Below are positions 26,101 through 32,214 of a DNA stretch of 64,000 nt, in pieces. The stretch is taken from contig JBDRCX010000006.1 in the NCBI GenBank assembly GCA_043821365.1, positions 519,417 through 583,416 of the forward strand, given 5' to 3'. Positions within the stretch are counted from its first letter, which is position 1; each line of letters opens with the position of its first letter. A program made the translations under genes and the position numbers. Origin of the DNA: Candidatus Micrarchaeota archaeon (GTDB lineage Archaea; Micrarchaeota; Micrarchaeia; Anstonellales; Bilamarchaeaceae). Under the pieces are notes generated by a model, which had not been told where the DNA came from, made no database searches, and saw only the letters and a program-made list of their open reading frames with translations.

Positions 26101-27491
26101 ATCTCAATATAAACAGCAGTTTCCTGAACATGTTCACCTGCTGTTAGTGATATGCCATGAAGCTGTGCTCGTTTTTCTGGTGTTGTTAATTTATTGGCAT
26201 ATAATTGGCTAAGTTCAATTTGTATTTGCATCTGAGTACTATCACTAGAAGCCATGGCAGCAAAAATTCTCTCATGAATTCCGTTGAATTGTTCTAATTG
26301 TTCTGAACTCATGGATTGATAACTTTTCAAATAAGTTTCAACTATTTTTTGTAAACCGCTTGCAGTATATACCTGTTGCAATGTTGCTTCATCTGTTTTC
26401 AAACCAACTATTGCATCATGCAGTCCACCTACTGTTGGAATTTCTTGGCTTTCAATGTCTGCAATTAGATGATCTCTGATCTCATTTCTAACTGTTGCTT
26501 CATCTTTTCTACCAGTTACTAAGTCGTCGCTCCATGTTGCTAATTTTTTCCTAAATGCACTATCAGCAGTTTCATACTGAGCTAATATGTATTCATATAA
26601 TGCAAGCTCATCTTCTTTCAGTGTTCCTTGTTCAGCAAATTCTGTTCTCAATTCTTTAACTCTTACATACATTCCTTGGATAAAACTTGGTGGGGCATCA
26701 CGCATTCCTAAATCTTGTAGGTGCTCTATCATTCCGTCTATTCCGGCAAGCTTTTGTTGCTTTAGAATCCCAACACCATCTCTGAATCTTTGCATTACTT
26801 CTTGGAGTTCTTGATTATTTTCATCAGTAAATTCTTGTCCTGCATCTATCTGTCTCTTAAGAACTTGTGACACTTGGATGATACCCTGTCCAAGGCTACT
26901 TTGCGGTGTTATATACTGTTTATTAGAAATAAAAAATTCTGATAATTCTATCAATCCCTTAATCCTTTTTTCAGATAGGCCATAGTCTTGGAAAGATGCA
27001 CGCAATGCCTCAGTCAGTTCTTGTGGTGCATCGACAAGTCTTTTTTCAAGCGCTATTATAGTTACCAATCCAGTAAGTTTTGCTTCTGCTTCATCCATCA
27101 ATTCTCTTGATTTTTCTAGCTGTCCGGTTCTCATTTCCTGTATGCTTTTATCTGCTAAACTTCTAATGCGTGCAATCTCTGGCGTATACTTGGTTAATGA
27201 TTCACCATCTAATCTTTCGGATATCTGTCCATCCAATGCTCTACGTCTTTGTTCAACAGCTTCTACAGTTGGTAATGTTGATCCAAGTGCTCCTGCAGTT
27301 TCTGCAAGTTGAGTTCTAGCATGATCAGCAGCTGCAGTAGCTTCTCTTAATTCCCGTTCTGCTCTAGCACGTGGCCCTCTTCTCGGAGTTATGCTTGCCA
27401 GTCCACCTGCAACGTCTCGTACTTCCCCTACAACTCGGTCGGCCTGTCCTACAGCAAGTTCAACATCAGTTGGTCTAACCTGTTCAGCCAA
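14157..27491 (-). CDS. Giant multidomain protein (4,444 aa): helical N-terminal region, glycine-zipper hydrophobic segment, GGDEF-like palm domains, PPP-family phosphatase domain and a novel C-terminal module
   Basis: Uninterrupted 13,335-nt ORF in an AT-rich genome with a TTG start. Motifs read directly: GDVHGD / GDYIDRG / GNHE; GGGDE; G/A-rich hydrophobic repeats. Confidence 0.9.
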   Translation of the reverse strand: MAEQVRPTDVELAVGQADRVVGEVRDVAGGLASITPRRGPRARAERELREATAAADHARTQLAETAGALGSTLPTVEAVEQRRRALDGQISERLDGESLTKYTPEIARIRSLADKSIQEMRTGQLEKSRELMDEAEAKLTGLVTIIALEKRLVDAPQELTEALRASFQDYGLSEKRIKGLIELSEFFISNKQYITPQSSLGQGIIQVSQVLKRQIDAGQEFTDENNQELQEVMQRFRDGVGILKQQKLAGIDGMIEHLQDLGMRDAPPSFIQGMYVRVKELRTEFAEQGTLKEDELALYEYILAQYETADSAFRKKLATWSDDLVTGRKDEATVRNEIRDHLIADIESQEIPTVGGLHDAIVGLKTDEATLQQVYTASGLQKIVETYLKSYQSMSSEQLEQFNGIHERIFAAMASSDSTQMQIQIELSQLYANKLTTPEKRAQLHGISLTAGEHVQETAVYIEITKTQLAILELHETARQKKQIDLTDLYSRPIEYMDRLLEKIANGEELTDKERTAYGRMQILYLGKPEQIASFVAGDGIHTLDPSLRTLGNVADITGKARDLAFYGTIDILHRAQDAIEGDKSQEEFLVYILGANACSRPINDRDVATIADEITRMEIESLPVEKVRWILEAELRKQKGMEGIPSSSVRRNIQAYYDAAEVLFARGDVEGAERVRDLADLYCRAAKQPGEKEIPEFVRTVLGDYRGSTALGDHRILDMLLEEGNPQRFVPTTLSGPLGTALISGNSFINTINSSEDEKLVALLPVGDTKRIASLESIQQEHDSRLMLLEFQRTGSKIIGTTPTQQTRIGATYTAQSGYHERKATVAEKAGRILEADIQTQEAERIDYERITTMAEGFSTSYSRGLELVQQARTMRKAGTPEADVLEQKGLRMIYLSQQGQQALLQLHSSITTIRTIHRYRGRKEYDEAAQILLELSKIEEPELDDTQRRMIAGASYTMLEGGAKVGRERQIQHTVARFVKSIEAEQARLRELDQQHGSGREEGAITLAATVEHAGATIEAGTPLLDTQARMQELELAKRYARRERFGHAQKTLKSAVFGIQLDQRKVDIHQQHAMLFDMADDSQRDGEVLRTEIKTGNDGEPVVVGFDYRGLMEEVYSIDMTRATGNFREVELRLATFPKRVEFAQQSQMLLLERGSFERQAEALMQQYADTTEGKGMEPETKERTQESRQIIASGAATLAAELDAAAGKVDDEIDRMVNGTSTPESIDQQLEYVRIQLDQFTANQPLMIRRMYQKTGLEVNAGRLASMEDKIERTHGEMKEGEIGEIIVHHASELSDTAHHLRLQTAEVVHLIDGDIAELSRGGVGSGELDGTIDETNQRFASFASVYQVGMQRLSQMEYLRQREVELTRLEHNLGEFGKPQEIPQGDEKIDYAAIGAHQQVLDAVLATGITRALAGNAKEVREDLVQTSRVLGTSIDVMLTEGYADTFKPEYSRDLIWGIYQATNGFNGRIYNQRRIEKGGQAVYEEMVEDGTPMRKGLAYLQEHDQIRPGLHAQLTADLEFSRISTRVDQFNAGAQLAMSCLEDSIMLFDNVDQYVRTHGYSPFNMNLRWRAADLLQIGRAAASDPEGITRKILSGGQVSLPAIEVKIRDRDGVYDDAKISAGADYDDIPHALYAAMHGYLDSLQTYSVGFKHVEGDRFALAAHREPIKLADLYTTATFAKMGIAWDEDDGWTQVRLTPEEHKVVLAHATGTKDIKGISQLLGDYFGVHLGLTTIWSYSERKQMYDVVATYADHDLEVINGVLQNRLQGGKPATDEYIQGLYAETSDFAGQYDTDYGRLLKEGQSSESTARGIQAGVELTLALGLTATGFGAVVGVGFGTKALHDLAENSRRSGGFSQMGTAEQVLGVGGVVLGFGGAALGSLSGIANESLAVGRVTMFSSMMGTGGRGITVLGGGLMAGGLGMAGYGAYESGKAWIHGDIGGLEFFTTGVLGVVQATAPVGAHVAPTRTARAWRVAGTSQDTRGAKIFRGVMTGLTGETVHTMSLAETTALRAQHGKRFGQLGETQKTLYGQMELRLGRSLTPEEGLVFMDRIPTRKVGGRTEFRPLGAAATEKFLAEAEVYFLNPPEAEIPGGHPHDAEQDAPVDRTTEMRERRERAAEQVLHAQLKSRFIEPGEDGTTYRLGRGEEQKTYSSEHVDTALRIVSSAERILNNPEFASLPPEQKRAFVAEALRGQPEKVQRHAMELALNPEYLANRKSRARQLEFGLDAAMKIPEIARQPEAIVIRAMSEEQRLLERPVTVENLRETITRRKANVSRFRGEAKVLREAGETARAKQLEEFATRIEQGTEKLAAKLRTLEPVRHDESQEFVERKRAITDIEVDGKRPWSEITEQERAAAWPEIKRLYDEAYGAADLHYSNPEKLFTEVTPIWFVAREGGRIVAFATASRTPRGELRIGLFGATQEGQAGRTAIHSLVRRLTTSEDTYSLVSGRPAHLVRKYEGEFTLFEEAKIAMGSGIQRGELSPTKPGKNLKALRRMAGFETSEIVLEASKRTGRPVAEIKFEDLVDQAAIRGEIPDTPEAKARCFAVSQDIEGSPTIVIKLMVGHPRKVGAQARVTETAMPIAVGAEGIEPTPISKGRRTRGPETKVVEPETRAPVVEPESIEAGEFVRLRPSRELFKTDDVVGHVLRRAGVELIDGELVRTGQPEWLIGHEAVAGEEVSIGRMVRSIEDVILSDAMQGQEMDVIVIRPDKKSLSQINKMFGEEVGDQALGVYQDIIQGAVRRIIGDSQEQTAHIIRPPSGGGDEAVGIIIVPKGKGEDVRTRLGQEMRAVTDAEFQRISTASDGSGRLRYSLSLMTDPLRLIEASYDISRPVTVGRAEDGRAVAVHADGSDAMLQRSESRIGFLEGLITRAEEDGSLSFAPSLRERLGVRTGVGWKLSESIGQVGDGETVSGTAFEVRLQIDDNQAYVDIGGRLPGVERTVETPYLEITGKGYAEVERNAFGLRGFNTFLGHDGANYLVSTVEAAVARYATEHGVTVRRLGTMKYVIEGGTPADATVMARVIDEQLHSAGVKMSVQKQGAVPIENANFADAMASISNGRLRMLWGSENYDSADAIIAAMAIGNDDTLTRLGLGKLRDITEVIRKNPQLRKVEDLVIKLRRLPEPRGADMLEAFQDFVLTEGRTFEIRRQAITRSPDGMSLAIVDDAPRLAPVQKRTGEPDHAYRYRVRQQEREVELAVQEQQLGKRIPESTKLGRRLHLIAEDSKLGTANERMLAEQLGSDATYQEAIRTGSLDEAIAIADRYGTVLEAIESSPPTMKQGAYVDVIQNARQVIAIGDVHGDVYGVVDQFLRQGILIDTMEGIPRTLPKTDPRYVPPAKRYRLNPDLPEGSQIVFMGDYIDRGPTSVDVVELVSQMKSDGGQTGTRVHALRGNHEELFRRFVEFYRGSSDQEVRAVFEGKANADDIMGAMKQWSRVGVDQTFESIIERYGSWENFIHENYDQQGRVIEGSFMHFIEQSRAAVIIDNNYFTHGGPVLQSDGQLITSPEMLDAHFQRLFTTADNHWGTVFGDIRVMESGDYSSAYVEGRHGWAPIMSQEIAAQWREALGVDHIYVGHSRGKGVRAAGGYVTNLDASMSEAYGRGSGFVVIDPLRKTAPARLHTSRAPEDSPHLIGVADDSHVPTDFTNGRDRTTILRNPISQAADDVYAGREVVVKRPDVTKPPSRSILGMEESDLPSRVTYEAVIREDGNVQFNFEYDGVENILLVRIADDGMTPAELRTYYEGEISREVNSAKETHILDTLDQSLSSSPEMMRDAVMAGAKTIRRTAPEETRVQMLEAYSRTVAALDEHLHYAQVEGFITIGQIGNVLGFAAKLHLLGVDPVPLLSHEVKPGVRNGLLDNFRPTDVDSFRMLEQATETSRRLLDRIPLDQITDPDARGAVVKHIFEYLFDDVSRLPTAESREAYMQLIGSNLDNLDFGVLSEALAIRVDVKVGRKTRQETILLGDITADRADQLSVRPNRLPFATYLLPETGPVPRSLVLRALSSDAIRKELRSHANFRQVADLMDNIFNSSGNTTVEPWLRLVGAELEYIARDGATKADKAEFLGSSRTRGKIDYMDLIYNAYLDGKVSPADLARISRNLIGPDGGVLPIDAFTQTVSSEIGKLFIPSDVQLPAAFILENIDLIMDYTQYRGNLTEAAPRSTQNLVGYYGPQEGFGEAAIVFDQAIRAMAEGRFQEFKFSDEFRGELISLVGEERGSRIFETWRQNHTADQVTVGDATHTILETGSFEDGFYGGRVRGERTCQDISQQTFHIAGIVGTVELPWIKQIVIKNPAGEIIYRRRIFLMQGDDGNPILVAQPKYGAKDMPGLAEIDTAVMASIRTRYEEMGIGVRDIDHAYANDIGPNAGYRTFTSGRSPYYYMDSNGYVVRAGREGIVFARHGLHYREPGTSEGYRQPDIFQKGWNERRDITGELIKD
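16650..17600 (-). other. PPP-family (calcineurin-like) Ser/Thr phosphatase or ApaH-like metallophosphatase domain inside the giant ORF
   Basis: IAIGDVHGD (17562-17579), MGDYIDRG (17379-17399), RGNHE (17283-17294), downstream THGG and VGHS. Confidence 0.8.
19000..19380 (-). other. GGDEF-like nucleotidyl-cyclase palm domain inside the giant ORF
   Basis: MDVIVIRPDKKSLSQINKMFGEEVGDQAL...IRPPSGGGDEAVGIIIV is collinear with the GGDEF pattern (D-x-D-x-FK-x-iND-x-GH-x-GD ... GGDEF). GGGDE lies at 19173-19187. Confidence 0.55.
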
Positions 27492-27499
27492 ATCTTCAC

Positions 27500-27814
27500 C
27501 TAATTTTTCGTATAACAGATATTTACAAATTCCTGCAGCATATTAATGCGTTCGTTGTAATCTCGTCTTCTATTTTTTGTAATTAAAACTTTCTTTTCCC
27601 ATTCACTCAAAGCAGTGTGTAATTTTTTGTACCCCGTAAATTTTGGTTCAAGGTCTTTTGGTCTTGTTTTTGCATTATCCCATTTTGCAATTGCATCTTC
27701 AAGTACAGAAATAGTGTTATTGACTTTTTCAATAACCTTCTTTTCAACAAGATCTATGTTTGATTCATTGACTGGTTGACCAAATTCAAAATCTTTATTC
27801 TTGTTGTTATCCAT
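27500..27814 (-). CDS. Hypothetical small helical protein, first gene of the giant-protein operon
   Basis: 104-aa ORF whose stop lies 8 nt upstream of the giant ORF start. An ATATATAAAAAT box sits about 35 nt upstream on the minus strand. Confidence 0.5.
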   Translation of the reverse strand: MDNNKNKDFEFGQPVNESNIDLVEKKVIEKVNNTISVLEDAIAKWDNAKTRPKDLEPKFTGYKKLHTALSEWEKKVLITKNRRRDYNERINMLQEFVNICYTKN

Positions 27815-27924
27815 GGTTCCCCTCTATACTCTTTGCTTATCTCTTATTTTTATATATTCCTCTCACGTAACCTTGTTTTCGATTCAACGCCAAGTTTTTT
27901 AACTGATCCCAACAAATAATTTTT

Positions 27925-28458
27925 ATGGCAAATACTCAGTCACGGCCTCCTAATTTGCGTCTTATCAAAGGTGATCACACCACACCATTCAATCGTTCCA
28001 GAACTGAAGTTCTATTATCTGAAATTCAAACTGGTGGCCCGTCTTATATGAAAATAAGGGAACTTTCAAAACAAATAAAATCAAAAATTGCTTTTTTGGA
28101 AGCAGAATTGGCAGATGATGGGAAGAATCTTCGTAGTGGTCTTCAAAATTTCTTAGCTGTCATGGCAAGCAGTAGAAAAGATGAACTAACTGGCAGTGGT
28201 GTTGACTTTAGGGATCCTTCTGATCCTAAAAAAGTTGCTGTTAGTCTTGTGAGTGGTGAAACAGATTCTCCTGAAGCACAACCCAAAATTGATCAAATTA
28301 TAGCTAGTTGCATAGAAGTTGCAAAATCAGATGTTGAATTTTTAAGAGAAGTTCTCATCTCAACTAGAGACAAAGGTTCGGTTACTCATGAACAATTTCC
28401 TAAATTAAAAGATATTTTAGAAAATAATAGTTATTGGCGCTTTATTGAACCAACTTAA
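27925..28458 (+). CDS. Hypothetical protein, divergent from the giant operon
   Basis: 177-aa ORF with no recognisable motif. Confidence 0.45.
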   Translation: MANTQSRPPNLRLIKGDHTTPFNRSRTEVLLSEIQTGGPSYMKIRELSKQIKSKIAFLEAELADDGKNLRSGLQNFLAVMASSRKDELTGSGVDFRDPSDPKKVAVSLVSGETDSPEAQPKIDQIIASCIEVAKSDVEFLREVLISTRDKGSVTHEQFPKLKDILENNSYWRFIEPT

Positions 28459-28459
28459 A

Positions 28460-29614
28460 TTATTCAGGATGAGCAGCAGCACTTGTAACTTTTAATTGCA
28501 CTACTTTTTTTGGATCAGACCACACTGGAGCTGTTTCATGTTGGTGCGTATTTTGATGGTTTTCATTATGCCCCATTGGTCCTTCATGTAATGGGTGATG
28601 TTCCTCATGATGTGTATTACCATGTCCACCATGCCAGAATCCACCAACTAATCTTGAATGTCCTGGGTGTAAATGTGCATCAGCTTCAAACACTGCTCCT
28701 TCATGATGCCCCCCATGTGAATGATGATCATGATGTTCTACATGTGCATGATGTCCTTCTATGTGGCGATGAGTACTATGATGTTCTCCGTGATTACCTT
28801 CATGATGATGTTCACTACGGTGTCCTTCATTGGTATGATGACTTCCATGATGTTCCTCATGATGTGTATTACCATGTCCACCATGCCAGAATCCACCAAC
28901 TAATCTTGAATGTCCTGGGTGTAAATGTGCATCAGCTTCAAACACTGTTCCTTCATGTGAATGATGTTCTTCATGTGCATGATGTGATCCATGCTCATGA
29001 TTGTCATGATGAGATTCTCCATGTTGATGCCCTTGTTCATCATGGTGATGACCTATATGCGGTTCTCTATCCTGTGCATGATGTTGTTCATTATGAGAAG
29101 AATGTTTCTCTTGATTTCCATGTTCTGCATGAGCATGTTGTCTGTTAGGACCAGCATATAAAAGTTGGATTAAGTTTCCGTGTGTTTCATAACCAACTAT
29201 TTCCACTTGTTCCTGTGCTGCTGTTTCTTTTTTTGTAGAAACACCAGTTTCGTTTTGACCTAGTTTATCAAATAGGGGAGTTGTTTTTCGTTGTTCTACA
29301 TAATAATTATGTTTCATCCCACCAGTTGCTCTGTCTGCGTAGGTCCATACTCTTGCCCGCTTTCCATATGTGTATATACCTCCGCATGCTGCACGGGGGG
29401 AAATCCAGACTGTTTTTTGTTTTTTGGGTTTTTGTAGAGTGTGGTGCCCGGGTTCAATTAATCTTGGTATTTGTACTGGGTGATGTATAAATTCAACTAA
29501 CTGTGATGGGTGATACATAGCCCCAACTAGTCTTGGTCTTCGTAGTGAAGGCGGTTCAATTTTCGGAATTGGCATTTTTCTCTGCGCAATTCCAGCACTA
29601 GTCTTAATCATCAA
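28460..29614 (-). CDS. Extremely histidine-rich protein with an internal tandem duplication (putative metal-binding)
   Basis: The C-terminal two thirds are dominated by H, with E/G/N. The motif VFEADAHLHPGHSRLVGGFWHGGHGNTHHEEHH occurs twice. TTG start. Confidence 0.75.
   Translation of the reverse strand: MMIKTSAGIAQRKMPIPKIEPPSLRRPRLVGAMYHPSQLVEFIHHPVQIPRLIEPGHHTLQKPKKQKTVWISPRAACGGIYTYGKRARVWTYADRATGGMKHNYYVEQRKTTPLFDKLGQNETGVSTKKETAAQEQVEIVGYETHGNLIQLLYAGPNRQHAHAEHGNQEKHSSHNEQHHAQDREPHIGHHHDEQGHQHGESHHDNHEHGSHHAHEEHHSHEGTVFEADAHLHPGHSRLVGGFWHGGHGNTHHEEHHGSHHTNEGHRSEHHHEGNHGEHHSTHRHIEGHHAHVEHHDHHSHGGHHEGAVFEADAHLHPGHSRLVGGFWHGGHGNTHHEEHHPLHEGPMGHNENHQNTHQHETAPVWSDPKKVVQLKVTSAAAHPE
28596..28947. 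repeat. Direct repeat: two perfect 100-bp copies (28596-28695 and 28848-28947), period 252 bp, in-frame inside the His-rich gene
   Basis: Identical strings tgatgttcctcatgatgtgtattaccatgtccaccatgccagaatccaccaactaatcttgaatgtcctgggtgtaaatgtgcatcagcttcaaacactg read at both positions. Confidence 0.9.
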
Positions 29615-29674
29615 ATGACAAGTTGTTCCTGTTGCTTTTAAAACTTAATTATTGGATTTCGTTCCTTGTCGTAT

Positions 29675-29853
29675 GCGACTTTTTAGGAAAAAGTCGCCCA
29701 AAAACTAGTTAAAAAAACTCATCCTTGAACAAAGTTCAAGGTGCAAATTGTTGCTCTGCAACAATTACGTGGCAAAAAACTAATTTGCTATTTGGAAAAA
29801 AGGTAGCACCAAAAACTCATCATTAGTAAAATTGTGCCACAAAAAACTGATTT
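29675..29853. repeat. Array of short hairpins, each associated with a CAAAA(A)CT-N-(A/G)TT motif
   Basis: Hairpins at 29675-29697 (GCGACTTTTT/AAAAAGTCGC), 29723-29741 and 29746-29766. Motifs at 29698-29710, 29773-29790, 29809-29820 and 29838-29853. Confidence 0.7.
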
Positions 29854-29870
29854 ATTATTTGGAATACCCA

Positions 29871-30269
29871 CTAATCGTCCATACATCTTTGATGTCCATT
29901 AGGGCATGTCATGCTAGTGTCATCATAGAATCCTTCATCATAATTAATGTCTATACTGGCTTCTTTTTCACAATAAAGTTTATTGCACTCGGGACAATAA
30001 TAGTCAAGACCCATTTTCTGTATCCATTTTTCTCTTATTAATTTATGGATTTTCAGATAATTTTTTTCTTCAATCCATTTTTTTACTTCTACAATATCCA
30101 CTTCATTAATGGTTATTGATCTCAATGGACTATAAATTGTAAATTCATTTTCTCCAAATTTTATTAATACAATTTCCTGGCCACAGCTATCACATTTTAG
30201 TCTGTAATCAGCTTCTATTTTTGCTAATTTTTTTCTATCCTGTGTTTCATCAAATGAAGTTACTCCCAT
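29871..30269 (-). CDS. Hypothetical zinc-ribbon protein, third gene after the RHH/RelE pair
   Basis: CDSCGQ...CPECNKLYC...CPNGHQRC cysteine pairs. ATG at 30269 is preceded by AAGGTGGA and avoids overlap with the relE-like gene; the track start is 30326. Confidence 0.5.
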   Translation of the reverse strand: MGVTSFDETQDRKKLAKIEADYRLKCDSCGQEIVLIKFGENEFTIYSPLRSITINEVDIVEVKKWIEEKNYLKIHKLIREKWIQKMGLDYYCPECNKLYCEKEASIDINYDEGFYDDTSMTCPNGHQRCMDD

Positions 30270-30279
30270 TATTCCACCT

Positions 30280-30543
30280 TTATTTGAATGAAAGATACCA
30301 CCTTTCATATTCTTTATGAGTTGCAAAACACCTTAAGATAAAAAGTCGATCATCTTCAACTTGGTAGACCAAACGCGATTGTTTGGTCACATTTACTACG
30401 TTAAAAGGCAATCCATACCGCATATGACGGCGAGTTGGCATATTAACTATCTTTTCTATGTGTTTTTTAAAATATAATCTAAGTTGCGCATCCATCTTAC
30501 TAAGTTCTTCTTCAGCTAATTCTGATATGCGCACTTCAATCAT
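30280..30543 (-). CDS. RelE/ParE-superfamily toxin
   Basis: 87 aa with the C-terminal pattern RLVYQVEDDRLFILRCFATHKEYERWY. Tightly coupled (4-nt gap) to the upstream small RHH-like gene. Confidence 0.7.
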   Translation of the reverse strand: MIEVRISELAEEELSKMDAQLRLYFKKHIEKIVNMPTRRHMRYGLPFNVVNVTKQSRLVYQVEDDRLFILRCFATHKEYERWYLSFK

Positions 30544-30547
30544 TTAA

Positions 30548-30805
30548 TCACATATGGTATTTTTTCTTTATCTCCTCAAAGCTTTTGGTTTTGATTTTAC
30601 CAGATCTAATTTTTTCCATTTCAGATTCTATGCCTTTATTGACTAGATAAACCTCTTCCTCGCTTATGGCTCTGTCATATGCAAGTAATGCTTGACGAAT
30701 CACCTCAGTCTGACTACCGGCATATCCTTTATTTATCAATTTTTTGATAATTATCTCGTATGGCTCTCCCAATATAATATTCATATCCACACCATAAACA
30801 TTCAA
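30548..30805 (-). CDS. Antitoxin, ribbon-helix-helix-like (ParD/RelB-like)
   Basis: Small acidic protein with GYAGSQTEVIRQALLAY, sitting directly upstream of the toxin. The start is uncertain (TTG 30805 or ATG 30784). Confidence 0.6.
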   Translation of the reverse strand: MNVYGVDMNIILGEPYEIIIKKLINKGYAGSQTEVIRQALLAYDRAISEEEVYLVNKGIESEMEKIRSGKIKTKSFEEIKKKYHM

Positions 30806-30846
30806 TGCACATTAGAGTTTATAAAGGATGTGTATTCACTGGTCAT

Positions 30847-32214
30847 TCAATGATCATTAAATAAATAACTTCCACAAAATTTCAAAAATTCATTTAGTTT
30901 TTCTTTTGGTATTGATGCACCTGCAGCAATTTTATGCCCACCACCAATACCACTAATTTCTAGAGTAGCTTTTTTCATCAAATCTCCAAGATTTAATCCA
31001 TTTTCAACTAAAATTTTCGATCCTCTTCCAGAAACTTTTACTGTGTTATTGTCTCCAAGTGCAATTCCAATTATTGGTGTTGACCATTTTTGCTGAAATG
31101 CCATCCCACAAACAGTTCCTATTATGCCCTCATCAATTTTTCCTCTTCCATCAAGAAAATGAAATGCACCAAAATTCTGAATGTTACCATGTGCATATTC
31201 AATTCCGCTTCTAAGCATTCTTCTATGGTGTTGTAGTAGTGCCTTTGCTTCTGCATATGCATCATGATCTCCTAAACAAACCCGTACTCCTATGTCTGGT
31301 TGGGAATGTCTGCCACATGCATTCAAAATTGTACTGAATTCGTTTGCTTCATATGTTTCATCTTTTGGTCGATTTGGAAAAATGTAACTTTCACCAACAA
31401 GTTCATTTACTTTTTTCAACTGCCCATAGTTTATCAGAATTTTTGCAAGTGCACTTATCAAATTTTTCCTTTCATTATTATTTAGATCAACATATTTCTT
31501 CCCTTCATGTTCAATTTTAAGTTCATTCAAAAGTTCAATTGCCTTATCTTCTCTATATGAAATTCCAGGTATGTAGGGGTCATCACAGTAAGATAAAAAC
31601 TGCACTAATTGTCTGCAGTATCTCCCATAAAATCTTATATCTTCTTCAATTGTAATTTCGCCTTTCTTTTTTCCATCTTCCAAAACCCACCTATTCATAC
31701 CAGAAAGCGGAGATTGCATATCACCGACTGCTCCAACAACTGCAACATCTGCCATCTCTCTAAAAACACAATAGGCAGTGGTTGCTGCACTTAATTCTGT
31801 GCCACCATCTATACCATATAATACTGGGTTAATCTGGACTTTTTCTATGCCTTCTGTTTGGTGATGGTCAATAACAATGACATCTTTCAATTCATTCACT
31901 CTTTTATTCCCGCCTCCAAGATCTACAAAAATTATTTCTTGTTCTTGTGAATAGCGCTCGATGGCAGCATCATCTAGTTTTTTTATTGCCTCTCTTCTGA
32001 ATTTTTGATTATTTTTCAAAAATGCTTTTGCAACTATTGCACCTGAACTTAATCCATCTGCATCATAGTGGTGAACAATGATCGGATCTTTGAATGAAAG
32101 AGCCAGTTTTCTAGCTTCTTCACATTTTTCTAAAAATTCAGGATGTTCCATACCTACTTTCTTGCAAGTGTCTAATTTAAAATAAATTTCATTTATCATC
32201 CATCCATGATCCAA
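30847..32214 (-). CDS. DHH/DHHA1 phosphoesterase, archaeal RecJ/Cdc45-like (GAN-like)
   Basis: VHHYDADGLSSGAIV, VIDHHQ and GGGHKIAAGASIP motifs. The start is uncertain because 32214 overlaps the divergent gene; ATG at 32199 is an alternative. Confidence 0.8.
   Translation of the reverse strand: MDHGWMINEIYFKLDTCKKVGMEHPEFLEKCEEARKLALSFKDPIIVHHYDADGLSSGAIVAKAFLKNNQKFRREAIKKLDDAAIERYSQEQEIIFVDLGGGNKRVNELKDVIVIDHHQTEGIEKVQINPVLYGIDGGTELSAATTAYCVFREMADVAVVGAVGDMQSPLSGMNRWVLEDGKKKGEITIEEDIRFYGRYCRQLVQFLSYCDDPYIPGISYREDKAIELLNELKIEHEGKKYVDLNNNERKNLISALAKILINYGQLKKVNELVGESYIFPNRPKDETYEANEFSTILNACGRHSQPDIGVRVCLGDHDAYAEAKALLQHHRRMLRSGIEYAHGNIQNFGAFHFLDGRGKIDEGIIGTVCGMAFQQKWSTPIIGIALGDNNTVKVSGRGSKILVENGLNLGDLMKKATLEISGIGGGHKIAAGASIPKEKLNEFLKFCGSYLFNDH

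Follow-up and report, generated by a model that had tools for sequence, protein, structure and literature searches.

Gene X is a histidine-rich open reading frame (ORF) on the reverse strand of a 64,000-nucleotide stretch (hereafter the window) of contig JBDRCX010000006.1 (positions 519,417 to 583,416), from the Candidatus Micrarchaeota assembly GCA_043821365.1. Comparisons with related genomes give good support to its being the local, single-copy ortholog of an undescribed and unannotated protein family confined to one family-level clade of the Micrarchaeota, which are tiny symbiotic DPANN archaea with minimal genomes. As judged from the alignments, only three short elements are conserved in the family, an N-terminus, a core and a C-terminal tail, and the middle is a compositionally plastic linker. 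Since the same gene slot is not histidine-rich in sister species, histidine-richness appears to be one state of this disordered linker, with several origins. We propose, with moderate confidence, that the gene X protein is a flexible tether or scaffold whose linker, in this lineage, binds metals and alters its charge as the pH changes.

A protein family with conserved ends and a plastic middle

Read from the TTG at 29614, the start chosen by the ORF finder, the frame (28460-29614) encodes 384 residues. The ATG at 29611 is the likely true start, giving 383 residues, as it aligns with the N-terminus of the family and lies 24 nt past a conserved TATA box (Table 1). The extreme histidine content to which an earlier note on this DNA had drawn attention was borne out: the protein contains 75 His (19.6%), together with 41 Gly, 36 Glu and a single Cys. 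In a proxy proteome of ORFs of at least 200 aa, whose mean is 1.83% His, it is the top histidine outlier and the sole strongly His-rich protein of the genome. Its histidine codons (62 CAT and 13 CAC) match the expectation for a genome of ∼36% G+C. An antisense ORF of 212 aa (28510-29148, forward strand), rich in His, Val, Asp and Leu, was rejected as a gene, as the plus-strand ORFs inside gene X mirror its CAT/CAC codons. The second-densest histidine cluster of the genome (15 His in 50 aa) lies outside the window, in the ribosomal protein uS9 (G000:C6:720520-721242, reverse strand), which is extended at its N-terminus by ∼105 aa in which His, Glu and Lys abound (HEKKEAHEKKEAHTHVEHKHVHEKKHEEHEKKEEHKH...).

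Table 1. Features of gene X and its upstream region (positions in the window).
Feature	Position	Strand	Description
Gene X, 383-aa His-rich, predicted-disordered protein	28460-29611	-	stop TAA at 28460-28462
N-terminal segment, residues 1-59	29435-29611	-	MIKTSAG, resembling family M+xLTxRT, then Pro/Arg/Leu-rich; pI 10.9
Conserved basic/aromatic core, residues 60-117	29261-29434	-	...VWISPR...IYTYGKRARVWTYADRATGGMKHNYYVEQRKTTPLF; family signature
Transition segment, residues 118-159	29135-29260	-	includes EIVGYETHGNLIQLLY, common to gene X and L004
His/Glu/Gly-rich linker, residues 160-364	28520-29134	-	66 His in 205 residues (32%), 32 Asp/Glu, only 6 Lys/Arg
Repeat unit A, residues 220-255	28847-28954	-	EGTVFEADAHLHPGHSRLVGGFWHGGHGNTHHEEHH; HxHxxH motif and hydrophobic RLVGGFW
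Repeat unit B, residues 304-339	28595-28702	-	EGAVFEADAHLHPGHSRLVGGFWHGGHGNTHHEEHH; 100 nt same as unit A, 252 nt apart
Conserved C-terminal tail, residues 365-383	28463-28519	-	SDPKKVVQLKVTSAAAHPE; family consensus GYISSxxKKxxQLKVAxAxAxxP(E/Q)-COOH
Archaeal promoter	29636-29650	-	TATA box TTTTAAAA at 29636-29643, preceded by purine-rich AATTAAG resembling a transcription factor B recognition element (BRE)
Conserved upstream element	29658-29673	-	TACGACAAGGAACGAA (TACGACAAGnAACGAA), just 5' of BRE/TATA

A single-sequence search of 5.8 billion proteins returned one relative, P0002 (467 aa, 33% identity). The two proteins have in common an aromatic/basic block (VW...Y.KR.R.W..A..AT.GMK.NYY...KTTP.F), two copies of FE.DAHLHPGHS.L..GFW and a C-terminal QL(K/R)V..A.A.PE. 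A profile search of 1.84 billion representative proteins extended the family to ∼80 clusters of 320–530 aa, and a locus search with the core alignment gave 3 loci; within its own genome, gene X matches profile A5 with E = 4.6e-35. The family occurs in 20 of 401 genomes sampled across the phylum, every one of them within a single family, and was not found in the remainder of that sample. It is present in 34 of the 40 genomes of the host genus and in a few sister genera, at a single locus except in G247; among the names given to the relatives are Candidatus Micrarchaeota, Micrarchaeia and Ca. Iainarchaeum sp. The host genome itself (1.2 Mb in six contigs, 87% complete) contains no paralog of gene X.

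Searches of Pfam, NCBIfam, PHROGs and PADLOC with the gene X protein and 21 family members gave no match, a PDB profile search with the core returned only noise (E > 1), and Rfam gave no match in 27000-31000. Neither the gene X protein nor a degenerate pattern for HPGHSRLVGGFW gave a match in metagenome scans, and no near-identical contig turned up there. As all relatives found belong to the Micrarchaeota family and none of the protein databases gave a match, the resemblance to Hpn-like proteins suggested in the earlier note does not reflect descent.

The family begins with M(R/K)xLTxRT. Its core of ∼60 aa (...RSPxRGFYYxKxxRGKWxxAxRxxxGMRWNYYxxxGKxTP...), with which residues 60–117 of gene X align, is the segment picked up by profile searches and covered by alignments A2, A5 and A6. 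In gene X, the core has a pI of 10.2, with 13 Lys/Arg versus 3 Asp/Glu, and is rich in Tyr and Trp; residues 1–117 as a whole are strongly basic (pI >10). The middle (∼200 aa) is nearly devoid of conserved columns in the family, is mostly rich in Ala, Ser, Gly, Pro, Arg and Lys, and has a median of ∼3.7% His. The tail of ∼25 aa is present in 68 of 71 aligned members, all of which place its Gln at a fixed 12–15 residues from the C-terminus, and gene X conforms to the tail consensus, ending in PKKVVQLKVTSAAAHPE-COOH. Gene X evolves much faster than its neighbours: relative to the L002 ortholog, it is 33% identical by BLASTP (42% in a global alignment), compared to 66–81% for neighbouring genes (RecJ 76%, prolyl-tRNA synthetase (ProRS) 81%).

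The protein is probably almost wholly disordered, with short conserved elements that would fold on binding. An AlphaFold2 model of the full protein, based on a 71-sequence alignment, has nearly no secondary structure, with a mean predicted local distance difference test score (pLDDT) of 53.5 and a predicted template modelling score (pTM) of 0.21. Only the region of GMKHNYY (∼77) and the tail reach a pLDDT of 75–78, and the core modelled alone gave a pLDDT of 64 and a pTM of 0.20. A hydropathy scan, bearing on the signal peptide and topology check proposed in the earlier note, detected no hydrophobic segment (maximum 19-residue Kyte–Doolittle mean of 0.47), and the N-terminus is polar and basic. 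By these features, gene X does not qualify as a secreted or membrane-anchored surface protein.

Paired units and recurrent histidine-rich linkers

The 33-aa unit VFEADAHLHPGHSRLVGGFWHGGHGNTHHEEHH occurs twice in the linker, as the earlier note had described, at residues 224–256 and 308–340 of the 384-aa ORF; each copy measures 36 aa when the preceding EG(T/A) is counted. The DNA identity reported for 28596-28695 and 28848-28947 was likewise reproduced (100 of 100 nt, with a period of 252 nt). A longer direct repeat, 28596-28705 versus 28848-28957, is identical at 109 of 110 positions, and identity is at background level right outside both edges. The unit occurs nowhere else in the genome. Tandem Repeats Finder reports only short periodicities of 9 and 18 nt, so the repeat is not a microsatellite. 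The motifs PRLVGAMYHP and PRLIEPGHH near the N-terminus, taken previously for weak echoes of the unit, lie within the N-terminal segment of the family (RPRL... and LVEHIHH in orthologs) and are not necessarily copies of the unit.

Four genes, which together form a His-rich clade (see below), contain two units each at equivalent positions. The gene X pair has a counterpart in L028 (P0035), where the two units match exactly over 104 nt, are of quite different sequence (HIHLAHDTRGMFDSFESSL...) and have a period of 321 nt. In L004, the units agree at 24–30 of every 30 nt compared, over ∼130 nt, with a period of 222 nt, and in L002 they are ∼80% identical over ∼90 nt, with a period of 324 nt. Thus, units are near-identical within a gene and differ between genomes, while the spacers between and after them are unrelated in all four genes. 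These comparisons provide good support for an old two-unit architecture homogenised by intragenic gene conversion, with tracts of ∼100–125 nt. A fresh tandem duplication is disfavoured because the spacer would have been copied too. Of the two processes offered in the earlier note, a very recent duplication or ongoing concerted evolution, the paired units with unrelated spacers in relatives uphold the second and speak against the first.

The same comparisons bear on whether gene X could be an artefact, either a collapsed or expanded assembly repeat or an unexpressed, decaying low-complexity ORF. The exact gene X sequence is present in one assembly only, and the metagenome collection contains no near-identical contig, which would be compatible with an artefact. 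However, the two-copy units recur at matching positions in three relatives, each assembled independently, which argues against an assembly error, and the antisense ORFs are accounted for by codon mirroring. Dozens of genomes have an intact frame, with termini and promoter conserved, which excludes a decaying ORF, the refutation envisaged in the earlier note. An artefactual origin is therefore barely credible and already largely refuted. Frames are intact in gene X and in nearly all family genomes. In the G157 copy (L027, G157:C2:187265-188283), the N-terminal part and the C-terminal tail are in different frames, representing either a frameshifted pseudogene or an assembly error.

In a tree computed from the core and tail only, gene X, L004, P0002 and P0035 form one clade (support 99/88), all four members of which are His-rich (15–20%). 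P0059 and P0075, also His-rich, are placed elsewhere. Mapping the His-rich label onto the tree requires 3 changes, and the supported branches force at least 2; P0081 (27% His), whose core resembles that of P0075, was left out of the tree. Furthermore, 30 His columns are common to gene X, L002 and L004. Most orthologs at the same locus contain 1–7% His and have linkers rich in Ala, Ser, Pro, Arg or Lys. Because of these common columns and the changes on the tree, we conclude from the alignments that the His-rich state persists within the clade and has originated repeatedly, at least 2–3 times.

Proteins built along similar lines are encoded after RecJ in other genera, and two of them are likewise His-rich: a protein of 486 aa (17% His) in g18 and one of 514 aa (13% His) in g8, at loci L055 (G264:C32, 140-1600) and L056 (G104:C22, reverse strand from 144). 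The g8 protein contains two copies of HHHWYDGGDxTWxGWWSAVHH, the unit duplicated in L056. Both proteins contain Trp-rich units flanked by His-rich stretches, a build that resembles gene X. Among RecJ-downstream proteins of other genera, only L037 (g15) and L030 (g6) are significant with the family hidden Markov models (HMMs); the g8 and g18 proteins gave no significant score against these HMMs, and their homology with gene X is not established.

Promoter, neighbouring genes and the association with RecJ

Sequence conservation ahead of gene X implies that it has its own promoter and is transcribed as a separate leaderless or very short-leader mRNA; a nearly leaderless transcript is expected from the spacing between the TATA box and the ATG. 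Across the family, the BRE and TATA box lie ∼25–32 nt ahead of the ATG, with AAGkTTTAwAAGC at equal distance in nine of nine orthologs inspected and also in L028. The upstream element recurs at equal offset as TACGACAAGAAACGAA, TACGTCAAGCACCGAA and TACGACATCTACCGAA in L002, L004 and L026, respectively, and may be a regulator site. Further upstream, the hairpin GCGACTTTTT-CCT-AAAAAGTCGC occupies 29676-29705 on the reverse strand; in L002, an inverted repeat of another sequence, TTGGCAAA...TTTGCCA, occupies the corresponding site after RecJ.

The most conserved neighbour of the family gene is an archaeal RecJ, which in the window lies upstream on the same strand (30847-32214; NCBIfam RecJ_archaeal, 5e-126). 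Among the 18 loci of relatives in which the upstream flank is long enough, 14 have RecJ right before the family gene on the same strand, as does L028; ProRS and a DUF350 protein are found beyond RecJ. Between RecJ and gene X, at 29871-30543 (reverse strand), an 87-aa RelE/ParE-like toxin gene (PHROG RelE-like, 3e-5; weak Pfam ParE) and a 151-aa ORF containing CxxC pairs overlap each other. This insertion is found in the host genome alone among the loci examined, RecJ directly adjoining the family gene in the relatives.

On the other side, a convergent gene of 177 aa (27925-28458, forward strand), without a family match, ends 1 nt from the stop of gene X. It adjoins the family gene only here and in L002 (66% identical), and was ruled out as a partner of gene X since its homologs are located at unrelated loci in other genomes. 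The earlier note had also stressed the proximity of a giant-protein locus, to which no functional tie was found. L002 keeps the His-rich gene, with no giant ORF called at the corresponding position. The giant-protein operon begins with a 104-aa gene, a homolog of which comes after the family gene in several relatives.

The association with RecJ raises the question of whether the protein is a replication or repair adaptor coupled to this GAN/Cdc45-like nuclease, having a nucleic-acid-binding head, a disordered linker and a partner-recruiting C-terminal tip, as in bacterial SSB; its tail or core would then bind RecJ or another replisome protein. The tandem, same-strand adjacency is retained in at least 15 genomes, with RecJ proteins that are only 62–80% identical to that of the window. 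The strongly basic, Tyr/Trp-rich core and a tail that is a C-terminal peptide at fixed distance would also fit such an adaptor. However, gene order alone is weak evidence, gene X possesses a promoter of its own, and RecJ is missing upstream at four loci where the flank is long enough. Additionally, the tail lacks an aromatic pair like that of the PCNA-interacting peptide (PIP) box, no OB (oligonucleotide/oligosaccharide-binding) or other fold is predicted, and OB-fold proteins exist elsewhere in the genome. On balance, we regard this adaptor as quite improbable.

Bacterial SSB, FtsZ and the ribosomal stalk protein P1 are built from a head, a disordered linker and a C-terminal peptide, and SSB is also linked to RecJ. 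Gene X is laid out similarly, with an N-terminal element, a variable linker and a short C-terminal peptide at fixed distance from the end. In contrast to these proteins, it has no OB, tubulin or stalk fold: an OB fold of the SSB/RPA type was found neither by Pfam nor by the PDB profile search, and the AlphaFold core is without fold. Its tail (QLKVAxAxAxxPE) resembles none of their tips, so the likeness is an analogy of layout only.

Possible roles of the histidine-rich linker

The density of HH, HxH and HxxH patterns, in a linker that is one-third His, rich in Glu and poor in Lys and Arg, makes it very likely that this region can bind Ni, Zn, Co or Cu. In Helicobacter pylori, Hpn and Hpn-2 (Hpn-like) are cytoplasmic, nickel-binding, His-rich proteins (10.1101/081331). 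Gene X resembles them in its extreme histidine content, short internal repeats and lack of a visible signal peptide, and both cells have a [NiFe]-hydrogenase; as in Hpn, reversible binding of several metal ions per chain would be expected. The differences are more extensive. Hpn and Hpn-like proteins are about 60–70 aa long, with poly-His/poly-Gln runs and Cys-containing EEGCC motifs (Hpn itself has 60 aa, 47% His, poly-His runs and EEGCC motifs; 10.1101/081331), compared to 383 aa and one Cys in gene X, whose histidines are dispersed and whose sequence is unrelated. Moreover, the conserved parts of the gene X family are its non-His ends, most orthologs are not His-rich, and there is no genetic link to nickel genes, all of which run counter to the Hpn-like interpretation of the earlier note.

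A disordered His-rich segment attached to a conserved module is also found in the N-terminus of HypB, in SlyD and UreE, and in the C-terminus of mycobacterial GroEL1 (PMC10170517), and there, too, histidine-richness varies among orthologs. The module in these proteins is a known fold (GTPase, peptidyl-prolyl isomerase (PPIase) or chaperonin), whereas those of gene X are two short unstructured elements. No GTPase, PPIase or UreE domain was detected in gene X with Pfam or NCBIfam, and gene positions revealed no linkage to hyp or hydrogenase genes.

A dedicated metal store or metallochaperone, in which the histidines sequester Ni, Zn or Co and feed nickel to a [NiFe]-hydrogenase, as in Hpn/Hpn-2 or the HypB, SlyD and UreE tails, would accord with the composition of the linker, with the uniqueness of such a protein in the genome, and with a histidine-richness that all four members of one clade retain and that has more than one origin in the family. 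Among the gene products of this genome are a [NiFe]-hydrogenase large subunit (∼441 aa, G000:C6:701183-702313), a CobW/HypB/UreG-type GTPase (C6:677.5 kb) and a cation diffusion facilitator (CDF) transporter. Since the hydrogenase is there, a dedicated nickel store is possible, but nothing specific supports it. The hydrogenase is 150 kb and the GTPase 129 kb from gene X (C6:548-549 kb), no metal gene adjoins it, and the metal transporters for which the earlier note suggested looking are absent nearby. Within the genus, 37 of 40 genomes have the hydrogenase, irrespective of how much histidine their ortholog contains; being nearly universal there, it was ruled out as a correlate of histidine-richness. 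In addition, most same-locus orthologs have linkers of other composition, the protein has a single Cys, and selection across the family conserves the non-His ends rather than the histidines. A dedicated store is thus unlikely.

The calculated charge of the linker changes from +26 at pH 5.5 to −25 at pH 7.5. A swing of ∼50 units, together with units that join His and Gly to aromatic residues, could allow the GFW-HGGHG-bearing linker to phase-separate into a pH- or metal-triggered condensate upon histidine deprotonation or metal binding. His-rich stretches flanking Trp-rich units in the g8 and g18 RecJ-downstream proteins (WIGWWSAVHH, FLWWQHGHG) would agree with such behaviour. The squid-beak His-rich proteins HBP-1 and HBP-2 provide a precedent: they are eukaryotic, extracellular, intrinsically disordered proteins with many GHGxY-type pentapeptide repeats, which coacervate in response to pH through histidine deprotonation and aromatic contacts (PMC6884462). 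Gene X is similarly disordered and rich in His and Gly with aromatic residues, its charge being set by histidine protonation near neutral pH. Unlike HBP-1/2, it has two long units and Glu-rich spacers, is presumably cytoplasmic, and contains no repeat array comparable to those of the squid proteins. The combination of His with aromatic residues is absent from most members of the family. As the proposal is one of analogy, we give it a very slim chance.

The tether or scaffold that we favour is suggested by the layout of the protein, namely a conserved N-terminal element, a free linker and a conserved C-terminal peptide. The conserved ends would fold upon binding a partner; for the basic core, this may be nucleic acid or a protein of replication or repair, while the tail could serve as a docking peptide. 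In this model, the His-rich linker would reversibly bind divalent metals (Ni, Zn, Co, Cu) and flip from strongly positive to strongly negative between ∼pH 5.5 and 7.5, properties that could render the tether responsive to both metal and pH. Both the tether and the part played by the histidines in the cell are inferences.

Several points weigh against this proposal. The failure of AlphaFold to fold the core could stem from a shallow alignment, rather than true disorder. RecJ may be adjacent because the gene order was passed on by descent, with the two genes uncoupled in function, the more so as gene X has its own promoter and is separated from RecJ here by the RelE/ParE-like gene and the 151-aa ORF. 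Lastly, the recurrence of His-rich linkers, also in g8 and g18, could mean that histidine itself is the point, as it would be for a protein that stores metal.

RecJ belongs to the DHH nucleases, which depend on Mn. There is a slim chance that gene X represents a lineage-specific, fully disordered adaptor encoded with the replicative RecJ/Cdc45-type nuclease, in which core and tail dock to the replication or repair machinery, the linker has repeatedly and independently turned His-rich, coupling that machinery to metal availability or cytoplasmic pH, and the two bivalent units, held identical through gene conversion, serve as paired binding sites. By analogy, such an adaptor may have the head-linker-tip layout of SSB without the OB fold.

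His-rich proteins are usually taken as metal stores, yet sister species of this archaeon hold Ala-, Ser-, Pro- or Lys-rich versions in the same gene slot. With their sharp edges and perfect identity, the 100-nt tracts found in several species are a clean archaeal case of intragenic gene conversion. The family as a whole is an unannotated part of DPANN cell biology missed by standard annotation, and its orthologs form a natural set in which to ask what histidines in a linker contribute to organisms with minimal genomes, be it metal buffering, pH switching or condensation.

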